Source of the DNA: Harriotta raleighana
Lineage: Eukaryota
Direction of reading: 5' to 3'
Length of the DNA: 64,000 bases
NCBI GenBank assembly: GCA_050575255.1
Contig: JBNZDD010013732.1
Span: forward strand, 21,338,244 to 21,402,243
Below, piece after piece: positions 4,701 to 64,000 of the stretch. A program made the translations under genes and the position numbers. The notes under the pieces are model-generated. The model was given only the letters and a program-made list of their open reading frames with translations, was not told where the DNA came from and searched no databases. The first letter of the stretch is position 1. The number at the start of each line of letters is the position of its first letter.

Positions 4701-5589
4701 TTATCAACCCAGAGAACAAAACTAGTCATTATTCTGCACTAATTGACAATCACTCAGAGAGAGCATATGGATGGATAACTGTCATGGGACATTGTAAGAG
4801 AGATTCAAGCTTTGGCTTGGGAAAAGATGGATAAGTATATATCTGTGGAAGCTGAGCGTGGTGTGTAATGGGCAAAGCCAATTCTCGCAAAACTCATTCA
4901 GATTGCTAAACGCCCATTAATTCATTGTCCACATATTCACATATCTGTTGTATATGTATGTGGTGGAGGTAGGGCGGGCGGTAAGTTGGGGTATATTTCA
5001 CATTAGTGCAAGGGAGTGAAAAAAACTGAAAATTTGATTGGCAACTGTGGAAAATCAAACTGGTGAAGTATGGCAAGTTTTTTTGAGGTAAGGGCTAAAG
5101 TATGCTTTTGAAGCAATCTTACTCCACACAGTTATTATGTATTATTATATCCAGTTACAATTATTGTTCCTTACTTCAGCTGAGAATCCTTACACAAGAT
5201 ATCCAAAGCAGGAATAGATATTTCCTAACATTTTGTTTCTCTCTTTAATCATCAAACAGGCAAGTACTGTAAAATAATGAATTAATGGTATTGGCCTTGC
5301 AACCAACTGTATCAAGAAAAATTGCTAATGTTTTACAAGGTGTAAACTGTAACGTATCTCATTAGTACAATTTTTTGACTATATGTCAATGAGTTGAACC
5401 TCATGCGTACACAAGAGTTGCTGGCATTGCCTTCAATGTTATCAGACTTAGTGAAAATGTTGTCAAATTGATCATGTATTAATTTACTGTTAAACAGAAC
5501 CTATTTTTCTAAAATTTCTCTCTCTTACTCCCCCATCCCCTGTGACAGTGCTAACTTTTCCTGGGAAATGAATGGGATCAAAGCAACTA

Positions 5590-43212: not shown

Positions 43213-43339
43213 CATATCATCCTTGGGTTTCACAACTTTCATGAAGGCACCCCGAGTTGTGGCTTCCTCACGTTCTTTTCTTGTGACTTTTCTTGCATCT
43301 AAGAACTTCAGGTTTGTCAGTTTGTGAAGGATGAAATAC
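43213..43339 (-). CDS. LRMDA: LRMDA internal coding exon (LRRcap-like region), 127 bp
   Basis: Translates (R)[42 protein letters not shown], matching recalled human [40 protein letters not shown]. Donor is ATG|GTAAGG. Confidence 0.93.
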
Positions 43340-44249: not shown

Positions 44250-44482
44250 AAGAAACTCCCTTCTCTTTTTGAACAGTGGCATGGGATAAAACTAGTCATT
44301 TACTTCACGGCTGTTTGTGCATATTGGCTGTATGTTCACTTACATATACATGGGTGGGAAGAAACTCCCTTCTCTTTTTGAACAGTGGCATGGGATAAAA
44401 CTAGTCATTTACTTCACGGCTGTTTGTGGGACATGGCTTTGTGCATATTGGCTGTATGTTCACTTACATATACATGGGTGGG
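44250..44482 (+). repeat. Tandem duplication, 109 bp + 124 bp
   Basis: The units start aagaaactcccttctc at 44250 and 44359 and are identical except for a 15-bp indel. Confidence 0.93.
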
Positions 44483-44830: not shown

Positions 44831-47499
44831 CGCCCGCTTCACATTTAAATAAATACCAAAGGTATTATGTATCAACAACATCAACTTGCACTTATACAGC
44901 ATCCTCCATGTAGGGTGGTGTCTCAAGAGCGCTTAGAATGCAAGGATACCAAATACTGTACAGGGATCACTGTTAAGGAATTTTAAGCTGTCTAATTTCG
45001 ATCAATATGACTTCACTTGAATACACGTCTCGTAAAATTCTGCTTAAATACTGATTTCTCACTTTTGTTTGTCCTCCCCCCAACCACCATTGGTTATTTA
45101 CTGAGTTTTATTTACTAGAGCTAACATTCAGCTTACTTGTCTCCCCAGTAGCCTCATATTTTTTGCAAGTGTAGAAAGATAATATATAATATTTAAATCT
45201 GGCTTGAAGCTATTTTCTCCATTATTTAATTGAATAAATGATTATTCTATAAGCTTTAAACTATTTTACTAAAATACACAAAGTGTATAACTTGAATAAC
45301 TGAGTTACAGGCCTTGGAATCTTGTTTATAGGCAGCTTGTAAACTATTTCTAATGTCTCAAGCAAGCACTTAAGAAAAAGACAAGGATCTATTCCAAGCA
45401 GCAATTTTGAGGAAACTGCAATGCTCACTTGTAGCAGACTTTAACAGCCCATAACATATTGTTTACTGGGAGACAAATTGTGCCAACATGGTAAGATAAG
45501 TTACCTCAGTACAAACCACAAATTTAGCTTGGGTTTTTCTTCATCTATGGAGCCTACATCGTAGAAGGCATTTGCTCAGTGAGTTTGTCAAAGGGATAGG
45601 GTTAAATATCGCAAGGGCACATCAACTAGCAGTTAAGATACTGGCACGCTTTGTCTAAGCAAATTTAAGCAAAATTCTAGATCCACCTTCACAGAAGAAA
45701 ATGGTAATTTCTTGCCTTAAGGGAGCTTAATAAGGAATGCAAGGTCAATGCCCTTTCCTACTGTAGGCCTAAAATGCTAGTTATTATTTTCCATGATGGT
45801 ACATTGGTAGTGATGTAATTTAGAAAAATCTTATCTCATTGGTAATGATTGGACCCAGAGTGAATGGAAGAGTACAAGTTTCAGAAGTCAAGTAATTCAT
45901 TATTTAATTATAATGTGAATTTTTGAAAGTACAGTATATTTTTTTCCGTTAAAAAACACTACACAAAGTATAGTGATTGGTTAACATCGGGCATACACAT
46001 TCAATTTGGTCCATTTACAGGAACTAAAGACTGTAAGCACTGTGGACAATTCTGGTAAATTGAAGCAGTTTTTATTGTTTTCCGAAGGGAGTGAATTGAG
46101 ATAACATTTTTTTCCAAGCTGTTTATCCCTTTTCACCAAGCTCCTGTCATTTCTACTCAGGTGGGCGGTACGTACGGGTTACCATGTCCCTTTGCAGTTT
46201 AGTGTTTGTACTTATGTAGGGAGTGTTCCTGATGTGGATGTCTGCTTTTGGCAGGAAGCCAGGAACATAGACAAGATCTTGAAGAATTTCTCCAGATTCA
46301 GCCTCAGTGAGTACATGATTTTGTTTGGGGATCACTTTCACAGTGCATTGTGTCACGCTGGTCAGATGGTGGCAGGGAGAATCTATCTTCTGCCACTTCA
46401 GTACAATTCAATATACCAGATGCACTCTGATGAAAACCCAGGGCTTGTCCATGTTGACGATTGGCAGGGTCACTTTGGATGTTCAAGGAGAAAGACAGAT
46501 TGAGAACTGACTAGAGTTGAGCAATTGGATTGATTCAAATTGATTCTTTTGAGTTCCCCCACAAGCTTTAGGTAGTCTAAATCCAAATACTGTACTGTGC
46601 GAGAAGTCACCACAGCATTTACCTGGATAGTCAAGGAAATGGATGCCTCAAATACAAAAAAACTGCTGGTAAAAGCAACAAACAGAAACACAGAGTTGGT
46701 TGTTAAAAATCTTATGCTGCTACTTGAAACGAGATTGTCTCAGTGTCCTGGCCAACTATCTACCAGATTATTTAGTTATTCACTCTTGGATGTTCGATTG
46801 TATATTTGTCCGTGTGCAAAATAGCTGTCAGGTTCACCTACAAAGAGCTGTCACTACATGTGACATTAATTGGTGTGAAGTTTGGTTCTGGTCTGTACTG
46901 AGTCAGCTAAGGCACAAGAATTGATTTCCCAATCCTGGCATTTTATCCAAAGATTTCTCTGATAATATGAATTGTGGACTATGGGCGTGCATTTTGGATG
47001 ATCACAAAATTGGCTTGCCCACAATGCATCCACAGATAAATATCCACTCTTATAAATCTAAGATTTATAAAACAAAAAGGGCCTCTTGATTATGGTATCA
47101 GTGAATTGTCAATGCCTGTGAAAAATGAACATATTTTATAGAGTACATATGAAGAATTCACAATTTAAATGTGAAATCATCTTGAGTTTTTCAAAACAAA
47201 ATTATGGTATTATTTAGTTACATTTATTGTCATAGCTCAAAAGTTAATCAATTTTAAATCAGATTTTTATATTGAGGCAATTCAAATCCCCCAAATTTTC
47301 AGCACCATTAGCTAACAGTNATTTTTTATTGAGGCAATTCAAATCCCCCAAATTTTCAGCACCATTAGCTAACAGTTTTGAAACTCTCTGAGTCCTTCCC
47401 TCTTTTGGGTATATGTGGAAATTAAATTCAGTTTGTCTCAAATAAATCTGAGCTCTACCTTATAAAAAGCACAACTTCTAAAGATTGTTGAATTGAATA

Positions 47500-53819: not shown

Positions 53820-53959
53820 CTGGATCTCTGGTAGTCATTTTCATCGTTGTCCAAACTAACAAGTTCATTGGGGCAGGCTTTATTTCCTAGAAGACTGAGG
53901 TACTTAAGTAAAGGCAACACTTCAGCTAAATGATCCAAAAGGGTGTCTAATTCTGTTAT
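53820..53959 (-). CDS. LRMDA: LRMDA internal coding exon, 140 bp (not in the ORF track)
   Basis: Manual translation [46 protein letters not shown](R) matches recalled human [47 protein letters not shown]. Donor is AG|GTTAGT, phase 2. Confidence 0.95.
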
Positions 53960-55537
53960 GTGTCAAAGGCCATGGGTTAAGGATTCAATCACATTAATGA
54001 AAAAGCATTTATAAGGAAGCACTCATAGGTAAAAAATTATATACATCACTGGCTGACAATCAAATTTACTGCAGCACTCAAGACATGTCAAAGTTATTGT
54101 TTAGGGGGCAATTCATAGCAAACACATGTCAGAATGTTGGCATATATTGAAAGAATGTGGCTCTTTTTAGTTTACTTTCTTTCAAAGGTGGTTCACTGAA
54201 AACATTTAAAACATTGACAAAATGATGGATGTTGTGTGGCTAAATGGTAAGCAATTGTTGAAACTGAAACTTTTCCAACAGGAAACAAACAGCTACTTCA
54301 CACTACATCCATCACTAATACATTCAGTCCATTGTAAAATGAGTCTGCAGTGTCAAACAAAAACAGCCTTATTCCCCACAAGAATATAAATGCTGTCTGA
54401 TAGCTCTGTGCAGTCATAATCAAGTTGCCAGCAACTTCTGAGCACCAGTGAGTGTTGTTGTCCTTTCACAGACTCTGTTGGCATCATTATTTTAAGTATA
54501 GCAGTAGAGTCTGGGTAATTTAGGAGTTGTACATAAATCCGTTGGTATTTTAATCTCATCTATTCTTATGAAGGTGCAACTCTCTGGTACCTCATTGTGT
54601 TGCCCATCCCTTACTTGTGATCCTGGACAGTGAAAGTCTCCAATAAATTTGACTTTGGATGCATCGCAGGCAAGACTGACTTGAGTCCCGGCTTTAGGTT
54701 ACTTATGTGTCCTTCCAGCAGGGGCCGCTGGAGAGAGATCATAAGCAGGAAACCTGGTTCATTTTCCCCATCCCAAGTCCAGGGGCTTTTAAGGATGACT
54801 GTAACATCATTCCTGTTGCCCCATCTGAGAAGAGCTAACTCAGCACAGACTGGGGATTAAACCTGGAGCCTTCCTGATTTGTGTGGATTAGTTTCATATA
54901 AAATCATGAAAAAGGTTATTTTATGGGGTGGACACTAGAGACAGAATCATAAACAGCGTGGGTTGTAATAAAGGCTGCAGTAAATTTGAGAATGGTGTAA
55001 CAATTACTTACTCTGCTAGAAATAGTTTGAGATTGCACATTTCCTTCTTCCTGTGAGAGCTCCTGAATGGAAGCTTCATACATACATAAAGGTACTATTT
55101 AGTTGAATAAAGCAATTCAGCATCTATCTAAATGTAATAAAAGAAAACCACAAGGAACACCATTAATACGTTATTGGTGCATAGCCAATTCTTTGCTTAC
55201 TTTTTTTGTGGGCCTGATTTTATCTCATTCAATAATCATTCCAGCAGAGGGCTCTCTGCCATCCAAGACAATCTCTTTCCTGCTTTCTTTTTTAAAAAAT
55301 AAGCATTTTCAATCTCTACAGTATTTAAAGATTTTTTTTTTTTTTTTTACACACCATAACATCCCATGTTACAAAGCAAAAGTGCAGCACAAATAGAGAC
55401 AAAGCAGGATTAAAAAGCTTTGGTGTGAATTTTTGCAAGTTAGTTTCTAGCGCACCATCTCAATTTGGGCAAAACTGCAAATGCTTCCCTTTAATTGGGG
55501 CACTGTGTAATTTACAACACCACTGCGCAAAGGATAT
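53960..55537 (-). other. LRMDA: U12-type (minor spliceosome) AT-AC intron of LRMDA, 1578 bp
   Basis: On the minus strand the 5' end reads CAA|ATATCCTTTG, the branch site TCCTTAAC lies at 53983-53976, and the 3' end reads ...CCTTTGACAC|ATAACA. The phase-0 join gives NKNQ|ITEL in frame. Confidence 0.95.
54620..54895 (-). mobile_element. Ancient SINE remnant inside the U12 intron
   Basis: The minus strand reads caggaaggctccaggtttaatccccagtctgtgctgagttagct (B-box-like sequence plus core). Confidence 0.55.
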
Positions 55538-55664
55538 TTGATTCTTGTTGATTGTCAGAGTATGAAGGTGTGGTAACCTGGGCAACTGGAGGTCATTTGT
55601 GAGGAGATTGTTGTCCAGAATCAGCTCTTCTAGGCAGCTGAATGCTTCCAGTCCTTCCAATGAC
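55538..55664 (-). CDS. LRMDA: LRMDA (C10orf11) internal coding exon, leucine-rich repeats, 127 bp
   Basis: Translates (R)[42 protein letters not shown], matching my recollection of human LRMDA ([43 protein letters not shown]). Acceptor is ttgttgttgcAG; the donor is the U12 consensus ATATCCTTT. Confidence 0.95.
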
Positions 55665-58289
55665 CTGCAACAACAAGGGAACAGGAAAATGATACGCCAC
55701 TAAATCAGGAAGGCCATTATGCACGGAAATAAATATTTCAACCTTCCCTTTCACGAGCTGGAAAGTTTTGGTTTGGTCTTGACAAGCGAGTGAATGACAA
55801 GAATTAGTGGCAGGGAGAGCGCTGGCACAGGCTCACATCTTTCACACTCTGGCAGGATGAAGGATGGGGGTCACTTAGTGAGTAGCCAGGATCTAAAACA
55901 AAAGGCTTCAGATATGGGGCCTACAGGATGAATTTGTCAATGTCTTGTGCCTTGAGGCACCCAGCCTTCCCTGACCCCAACCTTCATTCCCAAGATAAAT
56001 AACTCTGTCACAGTTCACCCTCATTCCCTGGACACAAATTTAACTTGTCATCCATCATTCAGTGCAAATATCATATTCTTAGCGCAGCTAATGAATCCAG
56101 TTTTATCATCACGCTCACAAGTGAGCACCGTTATGTGACGAGAAGAAGCGAAAGAATAAAATTAACGTGATATGCTTGTTACATAAGTGGGGGGGGGGGG
56201 AGCTTCACGCTTCTCACAGACTGCACCTGGAAATCAAAGCAAGGCAGGAAATGAATAGGGCCGCGGGAGCAAATAGCCCGTGCCCTGGTGCATTTAACCA
56301 CAAGAATACATATTGTTTCTGAATAATACTATGTAAATAGAATAATCTTATCATGAGAATCAGCAAATGGATTGTAACTGGCAAACTGGAAAAAAGGCAT
56401 ACATCTAAGTGCTTCAGGGGAAGCATAAAACAAAATGACAGAGCATGAAGTGGGACAAAGGCCTCGAAACACTAGAGGGAGTTGCCTATTGAAAGAGCCG
56501 GGCTCACACCAAAAGCTTGGCTGAACACTCAAAGACAGAGGGAGAGAAAAAAAAATCTCCACAAATCCCCTTACACCTGTCTGATTTTGATAATTTTGCC
56601 ATGTAATGTTATTAGCTGCTCAGTTAAAGGGAGATGCATTACACAAGGGTTTCCTTATTAATTGTTGTTTTCATGTCATCAGCACAGTGTGCATTTCATG
56701 ATTTAATCAGCTAAATTCACAACTGTGAGCCAAGGGGAAGGCAGAGGGGGGAGAAGAAGGGAATGGTGGGTGTTGACAGTCTCCAACATAAATCTGTCTG
56801 TTGTTTAAATCTCTTTTCTGTTCTGTTCTTCCATGATGTTATGCACACTTTCACCCCGCACTTGAGATGACTAGTGAGTGTAGAAACAGCATTTTGTAAT
56901 AGTTTGGTTTAGAAAGCTGACGAGCTTTGTTACGATTGCTTAGTGCACTTCGCTATTCACACAGCTCTAATGACCTGAGAGCTGCCATTATCTTACTCAC
57001 AGGTACCATCTCCTTCACTTCACTGGGGCTCACACACTCCTCCCAGAGGAGCCTCAATACAGCCAGATTTTCATTGCAATTTCCAAAGTCACATCAAGAT
57101 GACAAAACATCAGAATGCATTTCACTCTTCCAATTCAAATGGAAAGAACTTTAAGTTTCCACTGTAATTAACCCTATCCTCGTTAAGATAATTATGATCA
57201 AGATCCCCTGTCATACCTAATATCCCAGAATTATTGCCTATGGCTCACACTTCACCCTCATTATCTTACAAAAATGTTGCACACAACAGGCATTGGCAAG
57301 GAGCCCCCCTGCTGAGTGCAGAGGAGGATTGCTTTTGAAGGGAGGGGGCGATGTGTTATAAGGATCGGCTTTACCACACTAGTGTGAAAAAGCAATGTTT
57401 AGATTCAAACAAAGCAGCACAGACTGGGGAGTGACAGGCAAATTGACATGCTGTTCAGAGGGCAAATGATAAATGTTTGATGAATTGGCAAATGCTGAAG
57501 GAGTGATGGGCTTCATATGTGCATAATGGACTAGCTGCCTCTCAGTTCTGATTGCCTGCCAAGATAAGAGACCATAATGAATGGGCGAGCAAAGCCCTGC
57601 CATAAAAAGTAGGATTCAACTGGTTTTAATAAACTTAATAAAAAGTGCAGAAGCAAGAGACGGCAGTTGAAATGAGATGTGAGAAAAGAGTAAGATTAGA
57701 TCTACTTTAAAATCTTGACGGCAAAGTTGCAGGAGAAGGAAGTGGGAATAAAAACAAAGTTCTGTCACAGGGACTGTGAGACAGAGTGCCTCCGGTGCAC
57801 TGGGTGAATTATAGACTGCCTCTCAAGATTCACAGCTCTTCGTGGTAGGAGGTTAATATTCTCACATGTCATTAGGTCTGCTGGCTCCACTGATGGCTCA
57901 TTGAATCAGGCAGCAAATTATTTCCTCATGCTAGAAAGGACACCACACTTCAAAGGGAAGGAGCCCGGGTCAGGCTGGCTCTACAGTTTGATTAATGACT
58001 CAGGATCAGCAGTGGTTGCCTGTAGGTATGAATGTGACTGAGGCTTTTGACAACACTGACTTTAGAGCAGGGCTTGACCCGGGCCCTTACTAACTTTGTT
58101 TCTAACATTGCTTCTGACTGACCTGATGGGGCCTGTCAGTTAAGTTTATGACCTTTTATGCCATGTTACCAGGGATGGGAGTCGTTGTCTGCACAGCTGG
58201 ATACCTATTTTCCCCTGAATGTTTAATTCCTCCACTAAACAAATCTTTGCTGTAGTGATTTCATGCAAAGTATTCAGATTTTGGATTTT

Positions 58290-58403
58290 GTTCCACCCAT
58301 GAAACACAGCCACGTTACAGTCTATTCGGTGAAGCGCTTTGAGATGTCTCAATGATGTGATAAGGCGCAATATCAATGCAAGAATTATCATCATCATTAT
58401 TAT
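58290..58403 (+). mobile_element. SINE/L2 3' tail
   Basis: gtgaagcgctttgagatgtc...aggcgcaatatcaatgcaagaattatcatcatcatt. Confidence 0.75.
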
Positions 58404-59857
58404 TTCCTGCATAATTCATTTCACAAGCCACTTGTGATTTCATGTACTGTGCAACGTGCTTTTTTTCCCTCCCCTTGTCTACTGCAACCAGTGTGTTTGA
58501 GCAGCGGACTAATGCACCAAGGTATCACTGAGCAACCGTCACTTCCATTCCTTCTGATCAACCGGGTTTGATGGATGTCATTGACACAACTGTGCCAATG
58601 GCCTCTAGTAAACCACTCCCTGTATCAGACCACATCAAAGCTCTTCAACTACTTCCCCCTCCCCCACACCCACCTACAAAGGAGAGCCTTTAAAACCTAA
58701 TGGGAGTGTGATTTCACAAAACAGAAACTCAAGCAAAAAACAAAGGCTAAATTACATTTCACATCAGTAACTGCACTTTCAGACTTTTAACTCCCTGAGG
58801 CCAGAAACAATCTCAATGTTTGAACAAGAAGTTGAAATAAAAATGGCCGATTACTTAATCGTGCTTGGGCCTCAGGCCTCAGCAGTAAAGAAGGGATTAA
58901 AGTCTCCACCACCTGGGCTGCCGATCTCCTGGGCCCCATTATCATCCCCTTATTCATTTTTTTTAGCCAACAGATTAAAATGCAAGTGCCACAATCTTTG
59001 ATCTTTCATTCACCGACACAAATCCAATGAAGCCTCTAACATTTTCTGCTGTGGTAATTAGTACTCATTAAAAGGTTTCCAGCAGCCTGGGCATTGTTTT
59101 TTTCCCAAAAGAAATTGCTTATACAAGTGCCTTATATCTTTCAAATGTACGCATCACTCACTTTCGTCTTTAGCTAATTCGTGTAGATCAAGTAGATTAG
59201 AGACTCCATTATTTTCAGAGACAAGGGAAACAACAGGTTTTCATAATCTATCTGACCTGAGGATGCAACAGCAGTCTGATCAGGATTTAAATGCATTATT
59301 ATTTCAGTCTGTTCTAATAGCCCTTTGATTTAGACATTTTGAGAATTCAGTTTTTGTTTGGAAAAACCTCAGAGAATTTTTTTGTATATGAATCCATCTA
59401 TTGAAACCTCATTCCCATTTGTACATCTAAATAATACATTTAAAGATGGTTACATATTTTAAATAATTCATCTGACGATTCACTCTTCTGAGTATCCCCA
59501 GTCCTGGTGCACACAATAAATTCTTTCCCATTTAACATTTAACAGTTCTATGAACTACTGTGTAAATAATAAGCATGTGAAGGGTGTTATTTACTGTTGT
59601 TCATTGCATTACTTTCTTTTTATTTCCTTAGGAATATTAAAGGCAATGATTGGTCATTTAAGTCTGGTCACATTACAGAATTTATGAAAATGGTAAATCA
59701 AACACAATGCATACACAGAGATGTAACAAACACCAATTGTGTGTTTAAGAATGCAAGCGTATCATGATATCATGTTTTAGCCTTGGAACAATTTTTTTGC
59801 TGACATAAAATAAGAACAGTTGAATTTGTGCAGTGATTAGCTGAACTATTTATTTGT

Positions 59858-60070
59858 GCAAAACACAAAATACTACAGATGCTGGGAATCTGAAACAAAA
59901 ACAGAAGTTGCTGGGGAAACTCAGCAGGTCAGGCAAGAAAAGCGAGTCAACGTTGAGAATTGAGTTCTGACGAAAGGTCATGGACCTGAAACGTTGACTT
60001 GCTTTCCTTTCTCCATGGATGCTGCCTGACCTGCTGAGTTTCCCCAGCAACTTCTGCTTTTCTTTTTATT
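59858..60070. mobile_element. Penelope-like inverted-repeat element (two head-to-head terminal fragments)
   Basis: Perfect 34-bp inverted arms at 59902-59935 and 60023-60056. The sequence aaatactacagatgctgggaatctgaaac resembles the abundant chondrichthyan Penelope-type repeat (from memory). Confidence 0.75.
59962..60000 (+). ncRNA. Minimal type I hammerhead ribozyme motif (Penelope-associated)
   Basis: Stem I GAGTT/GACTT, core CTGACGA, one extra A, stem II AGGTC-ATG-GACCT, GAAA, palindromic ACGT stem III, predicted GUU cleavage site. Confidence 0.65.
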
Positions 60071-60149
60071 TAATCAGTTGTATGTGTTGAGTTATCTGAT
60101 CTTGGGATAGGCATCTGATATCAGCAAAAGGCAAAGTAAAATCAACCAG

Positions 60150-60375
60150 GATTATTGCTCCTAGCTGGAAGGTAAGATTAGGCAAGGTTTGTAATACATG
60201 GGGAATAGAGTCATCTGTGGTGGAGCAGGCCACCGAGAATTACATTGAGTGTTACTATATGAAAACAGACTACCCATCCCAACTAGTCCATGATGGTGTT
60301 TATATTCTAAATGAACCCCTACCCCTCCAATTCCCCTGTTCTGTACCCCTCTATTTCCTTTTCCCTCATGTATGC
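60150..60375 (-). mobile_element. Degenerate CR1 3' end
   Basis: acagactacccatcccaactagtccatgatgg resembles the reverse complement of a CR1 3'UTR. Confidence 0.45.
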
Positions 60376-63300
60376 TCAATGGACAAAATGATCTCCCTGT
60401 TCTTAATTTCTTACAATCTTGAAACCTCTCCTGCAGACCTCATATGAAGATGTCAGGTAAGGGAGGGCAAGATCAGAATCAGCTGTGACATTCACCATCA
60501 AGGTTCAAACCTGAAAATTGCCCACTTGAGTGAGGTACGATAAGGCAACCCAATTGATACCATTCCAATTCAGCAGGAAAAAAAGATTCAAACACCTTCA
60601 GATGACGAGAGGAGGGCAGAAAATGTTAAGAGAGAAATGGAAAGGGATATAAATGAGAATGATTTTATGGAATTCTACACATTTAGCACAAACTGGCTTT
60701 TGCAAAGTCTGATAGATTTGTTTCACATTCGGAAGTGCGGCAGATGAAAAGCTTAGTGCATAGCTTTATTGCTACTCAGCACTCTCCAATTCTAAAAGGT
60801 TTGGCACAATAAGTTCAAAATGGCAACAAAGGAAATCTTGTCATCTTAAATCAAACATGCGCGATAAAAAAATTGAGGCAGAGGTACTGTCAATCGGCCA
60901 CTGCTTTGATATTAATAATCTCTAGTGAAATTCAGACAAAATATCAACACTAAGTTTTCACAGCTTCAGTCTAGCTCCAAATCAGGCTGGATATAAATCA
61001 AATACCAGCTCTCCCCACATCCAGTGAACTTTGTTTTCTTTACAGATAAATTGGTGTTTACAGCTTTCACCGATTAATGGCACTTCCTGATATCATTAAC
61101 ACCACATACCTAATCACCAGCATGCAGGATCTGCAATTAATGCACAACCTCCCCTAGCAATTAACGAGATAAATAAAATAACATTAAAATGTTCAAATAC
61201 ATTCTTTAAGTATAAAAAAATCAAATTCGTAAATCCAATATTGTGAAGGAACTGTTTGTTGCTAAACTGGGGCAGTATAATCTGCTGAAAGGAGGAGGTC
61301 TTGTGATTTCCATAGTCAGAAACCACACCTTATTGCTGCAGTTTTTAAAAAAAATGATACACATGCAATCTATCCCACTGTCTTGTCTCCCCACCCAAAA
61401 TGATATTGCTTCCATCTGTAAGCTTTCTACACACTACAGCCAATGACATTTGTAAAGTTTGATACAGTTTTAAACTTTTTAATTTTATTTTTGAGGAGAG
61501 GAAGATGAAAGGAAAACTGGGAACTTCTAATCCAATAATGCCTTCTTTCTTCATTCTTGTCCTTTTTGCCCAACAAAATATTTCTAAGTATGTACTGTAG
61601 TAACAGAATTTGAAAGCTGTGCATTTCAACAAAATCAAAATGACTACTTTCCATGTTCTGAGAATATTGCTGGAATGAGTCACAGTTTACCAAAGAAAGA
61701 ACAGCAGTAAAATATCCCTGTTAAGTTGAAAAGCAAGTCTCTCACAAGACCCAGCAGGCCGAAGCCAACCTTTTAAATTTGATCAGGCCAGATTGCTGTC
61801 AACATCATTAAGTGTTACTCGGCAGTCAATCCACTCAATGAAAAGTTTTCTTCATCGTGTAATGATCCAAAACTTTTAAGAATACCACATCAAAGCTGTG
61901 CTTTGGAGGATCTCCTCCCAAACCACTCTCTGATCTTGCTCATAAAAATGAAATACTCGCCTATAATTAGTTTTGCTGTTAAATGAATGTATTGTAGTCG
62001 TTAACAATGCCTCTGCTTTGTTAACTGTTCCCCCAGGTACATATCAACAGCCAAAACCCCAGTCAACAATGGGGAGGGGGTAGAGAAAGGAGGCGGAGAG
62101 ACAACAGTTGTTAGGTTACAAAACACAGACTTCTCTTTTGTTTATACAGCAGGGCTCATCCAAGGTTGCCCTTATGTTCACTATAAATACTGACTACTAT
62201 TAATTGCAAGATTTATCAGGCTCAAACAGCATGCCAGCAGCCCGTGCAGGGCTGCAAGAATTTCAAGAGTAAAATGAGGTGGAAATAATCAATAACATCT
62301 ACACTTGCAGAGATACTCAACACCTGCACTTTCATTACCAACACAAAATGTAATCTATTTTGTCAATATGGTTTAAAAATATATATGAAAAGGACACGAG
62401 AATGTCTGTGGGTGGAATGAAAAGAAAATAGATCAACCCTGCTTTACTGAAAAGACCGGCATACCCAGGCGTAGCATCTGAACTTAGAACAACCAACACT
62501 TCGCTGTACACTATAATTTGCTGTAATTGGTACATCATTATTTTTCTTCTTCAAGGGTCATTATAATTCAGCATCACAAAGTTGCCTTCAGATGAAGAAA
62601 GCAAGAATTATTTTCATATTACTGTAAAATGAAAAAGTATAACAGGGATAATGGAGCTTTTCTCTGGAACGTTAAGGTTTTATAAGGTTAATACTTTCAA
62701 TAAATGTACATTGACCTAATTTTTAAATGGTGCCATTTTCTACCATCAACTCTAGTGGGTAATGATCCAAATATAGAATGAATTTGAGAAATAACTTTAG
62801 CGAGTATCAATTTGGTGCACGCGCTCATACTGTTTGCGATGTGATTGGGAAATCACAGCAAAGTTACTGTTAGAACATTGAAAACTTCTTATTTTTAAAG
62901 TGCTGTTAATCAGTTTGCCTGGTCATAAGAAAATATATTTCAGGACTTCTGCAAATTAATTTCGTAGTAAATGAAACTGAAAATTGCTATAATTGTTAAG
63001 CGAGAAAGTGTCCTCTCTCTACAACTCATCTGCAAAAGATCTTTTGTCTGGTACCATTATGTGTCATCTTGGCTAAGACTCTTGCCTACCAAGGACATTT
63101 CAACTGTGCAGCAGGAGCCACATTGAGGATTAACCAGAGCGCTTTCTCAGGCTTTAAGAACTACAGTAAATCTTCAAACAATTTATCCAAACAAAACCCA
63201 ATGTGTGGAAAAAGACACTGGAAACAGATGAATAAGCAACATCAATTACCAGGGTTTGACCTTCGTGCCCCACACCATGGTACAGATTTCACACCAAATC

Positions 63301-64000
63301 GGAGCAGATTGAAGTTGACATGCCTGTAGTGAAAACACTGGCCCTCACAAGGTTCCACTCCACAATCGCACAGCCAGGGAAGGGGTCTGTGAACAGGCTG
63401 GTGAATAAGAAATCACGCATAATGTGCCTGGGTTTATTTTAAAGTGAACAAAATGGCTCAATTTGCGCACTTAGTCTGTAGAAATTGACCAGTCTGAGGT
63501 ACAAGAGGAACATCTATAAGGACAGGAGAAACTGTCTGTAAATAAGTACACACAAAATAAGGACAATGGAACTCTTCGAATGAGTTTTACACGATTTTAA
63601 CTCCCACCCCCAACATCTCCTGTTTACACCACTTGATGTAGTATAAATACAGGAAAGAGGACCCTGTCAACACTGTATATACAACACCATTATATATTCT
63701 AATACCAGTCTTCAGAGATGCAGCTTCTGTTTGGGTATCAGTACAGTTTATGATATACTATTGCCTGATTGCAAAATAAATCAAAGAATGAATTAGATTC
63801 TCAAGCTCCCTGGTCACATTATGTTTGAAGCTACAGTGTTGCTCCAAACAACTGTGATACTATCCGAGGATCGATTAATCAATTGAGAAAACAAAAGTAT
63901 ACATATTTTCAATGTATTTAGCAGTGAACACCCATTCAAATATTGCAAAATATATTAATTTTCTTGAATTGCCTCAGACACTAACTATGTATCAGACAGA

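Follow-up and report, generated by a model that had tools for sequence, protein, structure and literature searches.

The window, a 64,000-nt stretch of DNA, contains part of LRMDA, a pigment-cell gene and the gene of albinism type 7. Between two of the coding exons of this gene lies a segment that begins with AT and ends with AC, a rare pair of intron ends, and that had been predicted to be an intron of the minor spliceosome. The locus raises the questions of whether this segment is a U12-type AT-AC intron, where exactly its ends lie, how old its position is and how it is represented in gene models.

LRMDA exons in the window

The assignment of the gene to LRMDA, made in the original prediction, was confirmed by the joined translation, which shared 94% aa identity with Callorhinchus milii LRMDA over 131 columns. 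A protein search with the exon downstream of the intron also matched LRMDA proteins, with that of C. milii as the best match at 91%. In the phylogenetic tree the window LRMDA fell within the cartilaginous-fish clade (support 97/96), where it paired with C. milii (93/79). This placement, together with the 94% identity, indicates that the organism is chimaera-like. Three coding exons were identified:

43213..43339, minus strand: next coding exon of LRMDA, 127 nt in length and spanning roughly residues 137-179 of C. milii P0001, with ordinary AG and GT sites
53820..53959, minus strand: 140-nt coding exon of LRMDA that follows the intron and spans roughly residues 91-137 of C. milii P0001, with an ordinary GT donor
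55538..55664, minus strand: 127-nt coding exon of LRMDA that precedes the intron and spans roughly residues 48-90 of C. milii P0001, with an ordinary AG acceptor

None of the remaining LRMDA exons was found in positions 1-43212 or 55665-64000 of the window, so that the flanking LRMDA introns must be longer than about 43 kb and about 8 kb; short interspersed repeat relics recur in both of these parts. Within the downstream exon, the codon at 53822-53824 (minus strand) is TCC (Ser), where 140 of the 141 homologues examined have Tyr (DYQR-Y-R). Base 53823 alone separates it from a Tyr codon, and the Ser represents either an assembly error or the true loss of an invariant residue. Elsewhere, a 57-nt tandem duplicate (47263-47376) around a single N at 47320 is likely an assembly scar, and a similar near-duplicate with a 109-nt spacing was found at 44250-44443. 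Seven sequencing runs from three studies contain part of the stretch, none of them at least half of it, and no RNA run is listed.

Splice signals and reading frame of the AT-AC intron

Introns of the U12 type carry the 5′ splice-site consensus RTATCCTTT and the branch-site consensus TCCTTRAC. The consensus features of a U12-type AT-AC intron were present here, namely the donor, a branch site near the 3′ end and AT-AC ends that restore the reading frame. The donor, branch site and AC acceptor had been predicted at 53960..55537 with the strand missing; all lie on the minus strand:

53960..55537, minus strand: U12-type AT-AC intron, 1,578 nt, phase 0, beginning ATATCCTTT and ending GACAC
55529..55537, minus strand: U12-type 5′ splice site ATATCCTTT, starting at 55537, with the exonic CAA just before it
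53976..53983, minus strand: U12-type branch site TCCTTAAC, in which the A at 53978 or that at 53977 may be the branch A
53960..53961, minus strand: AC 3′ splice site, the sole frame-keeping AC or AG within 31 nt of the branch A
55460..55462, minus strand: TGA reached on intron retention, after 25 codons reading ISFAQW...CPN

The two candidate branch-site A's leave 18 nt (53978) and 17 nt (53977) up to the AC end at 53960, in line with the distance proposed earlier. Removal of the intron gives the in-frame, phase-0 join NKNQ/ITEL, and both this join and the stop codon reached on retention were as originally predicted. The donor 9-mer ATATCCTTT is present as a single copy in the window (128 kb over both strands); its positions +4 to +9 read TCCTTT, with C at +5. 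Using an order-2 Markov model of the window, the joint chance of the donor and branch motif was about 6e-7, calculated for an RTATCCTT no more than 10 nt from the exon end that the protein defines, combined with a TCCTTRAC in a 20-nt slot before the next exon. Pyrimidines occupy 9 of 15 positions at the AC acceptor, without a continuous run, against 11 of 15 at the two U2 acceptors of the gene, a small difference. The intron and the next exon both open with ATA, so that the junction is ambiguous over four positions from the mRNA alone; among the four placements, splice signals were found only at the AT-AC one. Judged from these sequence features, the interval 55537..53960 is almost certainly a real U12-type AT-AC intron of LRMDA and likely a substrate of the minor spliceosome.

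Inside the next, ordinary LRMDA intron, the segment 44980-44942 (minus strand) contains a perfect TTCCTTAAC followed by an AG that ends at 44956, then 6 nt and GTATCCTT at 44949, which resembles a U12 acceptor, a micro-exon and a U12 donor. This arrangement adjoins a repeat relic, has an expectation of about 0.01 per window (computed after it was seen) and is probably due to chance; no strong U12 branch site was found downstream of 44949 up to the next exon.

The junction in homologous proteins

The spacer between NKN and LLGN was 23 residues long, as the AT-AC join gives, in 191 of the 211 proteins from the vertebrate search. It was altered at the junction in 15 proteins, 14 of them starting IS(F/L), and 5 were not scorable. 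None of the 15 vertebrate proteins from Logan read assemblies showed IS or ISF at the junction; the contigs are presumably spliced mRNA, since they are 0.9-3.0 kb long, and the ray-like protein P0009 reads NKNQITEL. Two UniRef models of C. milii read ISFTR... through the donor, and the RefSeq protein of the same species reads NKNQITEL. The insect proteins gave no ISF or VSF read-through. Among the proteins P0037-P0223, nine low-quality models read ISL, with one residue missing.

The residue at the junction differed between RefSeq releases. Specifically, Ser (IS) was found in 38 of 43 recent LRMDA models (XP_053 or later), the other five reading IT, compared with 0 of 37 earlier ones, in a set of 80 of the 92 listed cluster members in which 8 of the 10 clusters had been chosen for an IS-reading representative, the XP_053 cut-off was set after seeing the data and isoforms are not independent. 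The 12 members left out comprised seven GenBank low-quality models, two partial models, two Logan-only entries and one UniRef-only entry. The RefSeq models that read IS include XP_062831944 and XP_071895622. In Anolis carolinensis and Anas platyrhynchos, older models read IT and newer ones IS, and these flips within a species are the cleanest evidence for an annotation effect. In the sturgeon cluster, two Logan proteins read IT and a recent Acipenser model reads IS. A decoy junction would account for the change in residue:

53955..55532, plus strand: decoy junction with both ends slid by 5 nt, CT-AC on the gene strand and GT-AG on the plus strand

The slid junction has one mismatch to the true mRNA and yields NKNQISEL (Thr to Ser), and a 4-nt slide also reads IS, without recognised ends. 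The 5-nt slide is a probable cause of the Ser in recent RefSeq models.

Alternative splice ends and rival explanations

If the U12 donor is kept, each of four alternative 3′ ends (AC at -2, AC at +5, AG at +7 and AG at +13) shifts the reading frame. Two of these bear on the choice of the 3′ end:

53962..53963, minus strand: out-of-frame AC that precedes the true acceptor by 2 nt and lies 15 nt from the branch A
53953..53954, minus strand: out-of-frame AG inside the next exon (7 nt in), at 24 nt from the branch A

For U12 introns, a distance of 11-13 nt from the branch site to the 3′ end is the published optimum, and the pairing of AT with AG is described as disfavoured (PMC3584512). The 17-18 nt found here exceed this optimum, and the out-of-frame AC at -2, a putative candidate for mis-splicing, lies nearer to the branch A. 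The AG at +7, put forward earlier as a possible cryptic acceptor, is indeed present, ends at 53953 and shifts the frame, but by the same optimum and the disfavoured pairing it is a weaker candidate than the AC at -2 and was rejected as the main cryptic acceptor. The original prediction had missed both the better-placed AC and the cataloguing of the intron in human and mouse. Exon skipping across the intron, also considered, causes a frameshift.

A conventional GT-AG intron whose ends lie close by (for instance with its donor at 55518 and its acceptor at 53947), in which the U12 motifs would be unused relics, is very improbable, even though 12 in-frame GT/GC-AG pairs lie within 60 nt, the UniRef C. 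milii model P0012 shows the pattern that the 55518/53947 pair gives and the C. milii intron has been called major-like (PMC11347168). The product of each of these 12 pairs inserts ISF... and replaces conserved residues, and their donors reach at most 5 of 9 matches to the U1 consensus, compared with 8 and 6 for the gene's own U2 donors. Among the 12 pairs tested, none combined a GT or GC donor of adequate U1 complementarity with an AG that keeps the conserved protein at the junction. The spacer of the AT-AC join in the 191 homologues, the read-assembled proteins without ISF and the RefSeq C. milii protein, which reads NKNQITEL, all argue against such an intron. A true junction lying 5 nt downstream, with CT-AC ends and the protein NKNQISEL, is extremely improbable. 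It would agree with the 38 recent RefSeq models reading IS, a natural CT-AC U12 intron is on record (PMC2831892), and it would fit the rows in Table S7 of PMC6717393 that give cryptic 5′ and 3′ site use in human LRMDA as 1 (apparently 100%) in 8 of 8 tissues. However, such a shift abolishes the ATATCC donor and leaves 22 nt between the branch A and the end, and the IS reading is missing from all 37 older models and all 15 Logan proteins and arises between annotation releases in both the lizard and the duck.

Splicing of the AT-AC intron by the major spliceosome, as for the U2-type AT-AC introns of sodium-channel genes, deserves next to no credence: such introns do exist but have G at +5 (PMC2831892), whereas the donor of this intron has TCCTTT at +4 to +9 and is accompanied by a U12 branch site. 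The U12-type reading could also be extended to a regulated switch that limits LRMDA, in which slow splicing or error-prone choice of the 3′ end (AC at -2, AG at +7) leads to nonsense-mediated decay. This extension adds to the U12 AT-AC explanation and is compatible with it, and we consider it unlikely. All near alternative ends shift the frame, the branch distance is above the optimum, and the selection of 3′ sites in U12 introns is described as error-prone in PMC3584512, where a rate-limiting model is also given, but such traits are found among minor introns generally. Vertebrate U12 introns are as a rule long conserved (PMC2831892), so that conservation is no sign of regulation. The earlier suggestion that this intron may limit expression is a general hypothesis. 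The U12-type AT-AC intron at 55537..53960 stands as the preferred reading.

A probable trap for gene annotation

That AT-AC introns are often mispredicted, as stated earlier, agrees with the 15 altered spacers among 211 proteins and with the C. milii label. Beyond this, we consider it reasonably probable that there is a systematic annotation fault, in which an intron opening with ATATC and a next exon opening with ATAAC permit the 5-nt slide and a false antisense GT-AG junction. This fault would have placed a spurious Thr-to-Ser change in recent RefSeq LRMDA models of sharks, sturgeon, lizards, birds and mammals, would lead catalogues to misclass or mis-score a minor intron older than jawed vertebrates, and should affect every AT-AC intron whose next exon opens with ATNAC. 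The slide would also explain the human cryptic-use rows as an artefact, although these could instead reflect real alternative splicing. Annotated CT-AC ends have been attributed to antisense transcripts (PMC7072748). A weak literature search found no description of a CT-AC slide at AT-AC introns, which may nevertheless be in print.

Reads with a GT-AG junction at other positions had been proposed as a refutation of the intron. This is unsafe, because the 5-nt slide gives an opposite-strand GT-AG junction at the cost of a single mismatch, and a GT-AG junction called by an aligner would not refute the intron. The LRMDA intron likely misleads gene annotation in many vertebrates, and the Thr/Ser difference at the junction residue in database proteins probably reflects annotation release and not evolution. 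A correct gene model for this fish needs the AT-AC ends. The practical value of the locus lies in annotation, and the likely annotation fault is the most useful by-product of the analysis.

Age of the intron position

The proposal that the intron is ancestral in jawed vertebrates was supported but proved too narrow, the position being shared by non-vertebrate loci. The junction site was recognised in 54 of 80 metagenome loci, 42 of which were continuous (transcripts or intronless genes) once locus classes had been corrected by eye (L045 not counted as an intron, L031 and L051 counted as continuous). A GT donor was found at the same phase-0 position in 11 loci. In one further locus (L046) it lay 1 nt upstream, where the GT-AG intron at L046:719-798 is a possible intron slide. 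An in-frame AG acceptor was verified in 7 of the 11 same-position loci; the other four (L077-L080) are near-identical, with a best protein match of 87%, and proteins of cockroaches and termites are among the matches that follow. In a beetle isoform (P0026), the skipped part ends exactly at the intron boundary. Since non-vertebrate loci share the position, it probably predates jawed vertebrates and probably also the insect-vertebrate split.

Only one of the 11 same-position loci (L071) had a U12-type donor, the other ten introns being U2-like GT-AG. In L071, a U12-type GT-AG intron of 147 nt (5257-5403) begins GTATCCTTT and carries the branch-like TTCTTTGAT shortly before its AG, and its flanking exons measure 127 and 140 nt, exactly as in the window LRMDA. 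With vertebrate and insect LRMDA alike, the L071 protein shares 50-61% identity. In a tree without jawless fish, it formed a long branch that did not fall within the jawed-vertebrate clade (99/98), and an atlas search with the L071 exon returned nothing at 0.9 or above. An ancient position in animals and a U12-type origin of the intron are probable; on this view the L071 lineage carries a GT-AG subtype, and other lineages carry ordinary U2-type introns.

Proposed splicing mechanism and its failure

Minor introns are recognised by U11 and U12, with catalysis by U4atac, U6atac and U5. At this locus, U11 would pair with the donor ATATCCTTT and U12 with TCCTTAAC, and the AC lying 17-18 nt beyond the branch site would be chosen by distance and dinucleotide, so that splicing would join NKNQ to ITEL inside the leucine-rich-repeat domain. 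If the intron were retained, or if splicing went to the AC at -2 or +5 or to the AG at +7 or +13, translation is predicted to meet a premature stop with further junctions downstream of it. This stop would truncate LRMDA in the repeat domain and make nonsense-mediated decay likely. LRMDA interacts with RAB32 through its repeat domain and with Retriever through its C-terminal tail (PMC12491506), and both functions would be lost on mis-splicing of this intron. LRMDA is listed with albinism type VII (PMC7507305).

Comparison with known minor introns

Human LRMDA and mouse Lrmda are listed as minor-intron genes in MIDB, with the donors CGAATATCCTTT (human) and CAAATATCCTTT (mouse) and the branch sites AGATTCTTAACC (human) and AGATCCTTAACC (mouse) (PMC6717393 supplement). 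The human intron (gene also named C10orf11) is placed at chr10:76036135-76047163 and is 11,029 nt long, that of mouse being 6,431 nt (PMC6717393), and the same human intron appears in a second list, Table S3 of PMC6800510. The window donor 12-mer, including the exonic CAA, is the same as the catalogued mouse 12-mer, and the branch 12-mer is identical at 10 of 12 positions. The catalogued exonic triplets CGA and CAA fit NKNR/IT in primate and NKNQ/IT in mouse proteins, the window having CAA/AT, which places the window intron at the same codon boundary, in phase 0; this placement is drawn from the exonic triplets and protein context, and the catalogue tables used give no human 3′ dinucleotide. 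By these sequence matches, the window intron is orthologous to the catalogued human and mouse minor intron, and it is new solely as a record for this fish. There is little new biologically: vertebrate minor introns are very stable, and the human and mouse intron is already on record.

Searches of main texts for an LRMDA or C10orf11 minor intron gave no paper on splicing by title, the intron appearing in supplementary tables only, and those for elephant-shark U12-type introns gave only an unrelated review; the supplements of PMC3291851 and PMC10639083 contained no LRMDA match. MIDB, IAOD, U12DB and further entries in Table S8 of PMC11347168 may already record invertebrate or shark states. For C. 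milii, the nearest catalogued relative, the supplement of PMC11347168 gives 495 minor introns and genes for U11, U12, U4atac and U6atac. The C. milii orthologue of the LRMDA intron is labelled 'major-like' in its Table S8 (column 164, by our own count, of a 189-column row). This label is probably wrong, and the ISFTR... read-through seen in UniRef was probably its cause.

Like other vertebrate U12 AT-AC introns, which make up about 22-24% of vertebrate minor introns (PMC6717393), the window intron has the donor, branch site and AT-AC ends and long conservation; the clear pyrimidine tract that such introns lack may be missing here too. It differs from typical U12 introns in the distance of the branch A from the 3′ end (17-18 nt compared with the optimum of 11-13 nt), and its phase 0 is the under-represented phase for U12 introns (PMC7367187). 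At 1,578 nt in a chimaera-like fish, it is much shorter than its human and mouse counterparts. Orthologous U12 clusters show both subtype switching and U12-to-U2 conversion (PMC2831892). As in those clusters, a single position in LRMDA is occupied by an AT-AC U12 intron (window and mammals), a GT-AG U12-like intron (L071) and GT-AG U2-like introns (10 loci), although, unlike in the clusters, the direction and timing of the subtype changes in LRMDA are inferred. U12 ancestry followed by switch or conversion fits the published pattern, with one non-vertebrate U12 locus as its basis, and the non-vertebrate loci offer a tidy example of a subtype switch and of likely U12-to-U2 conversion.
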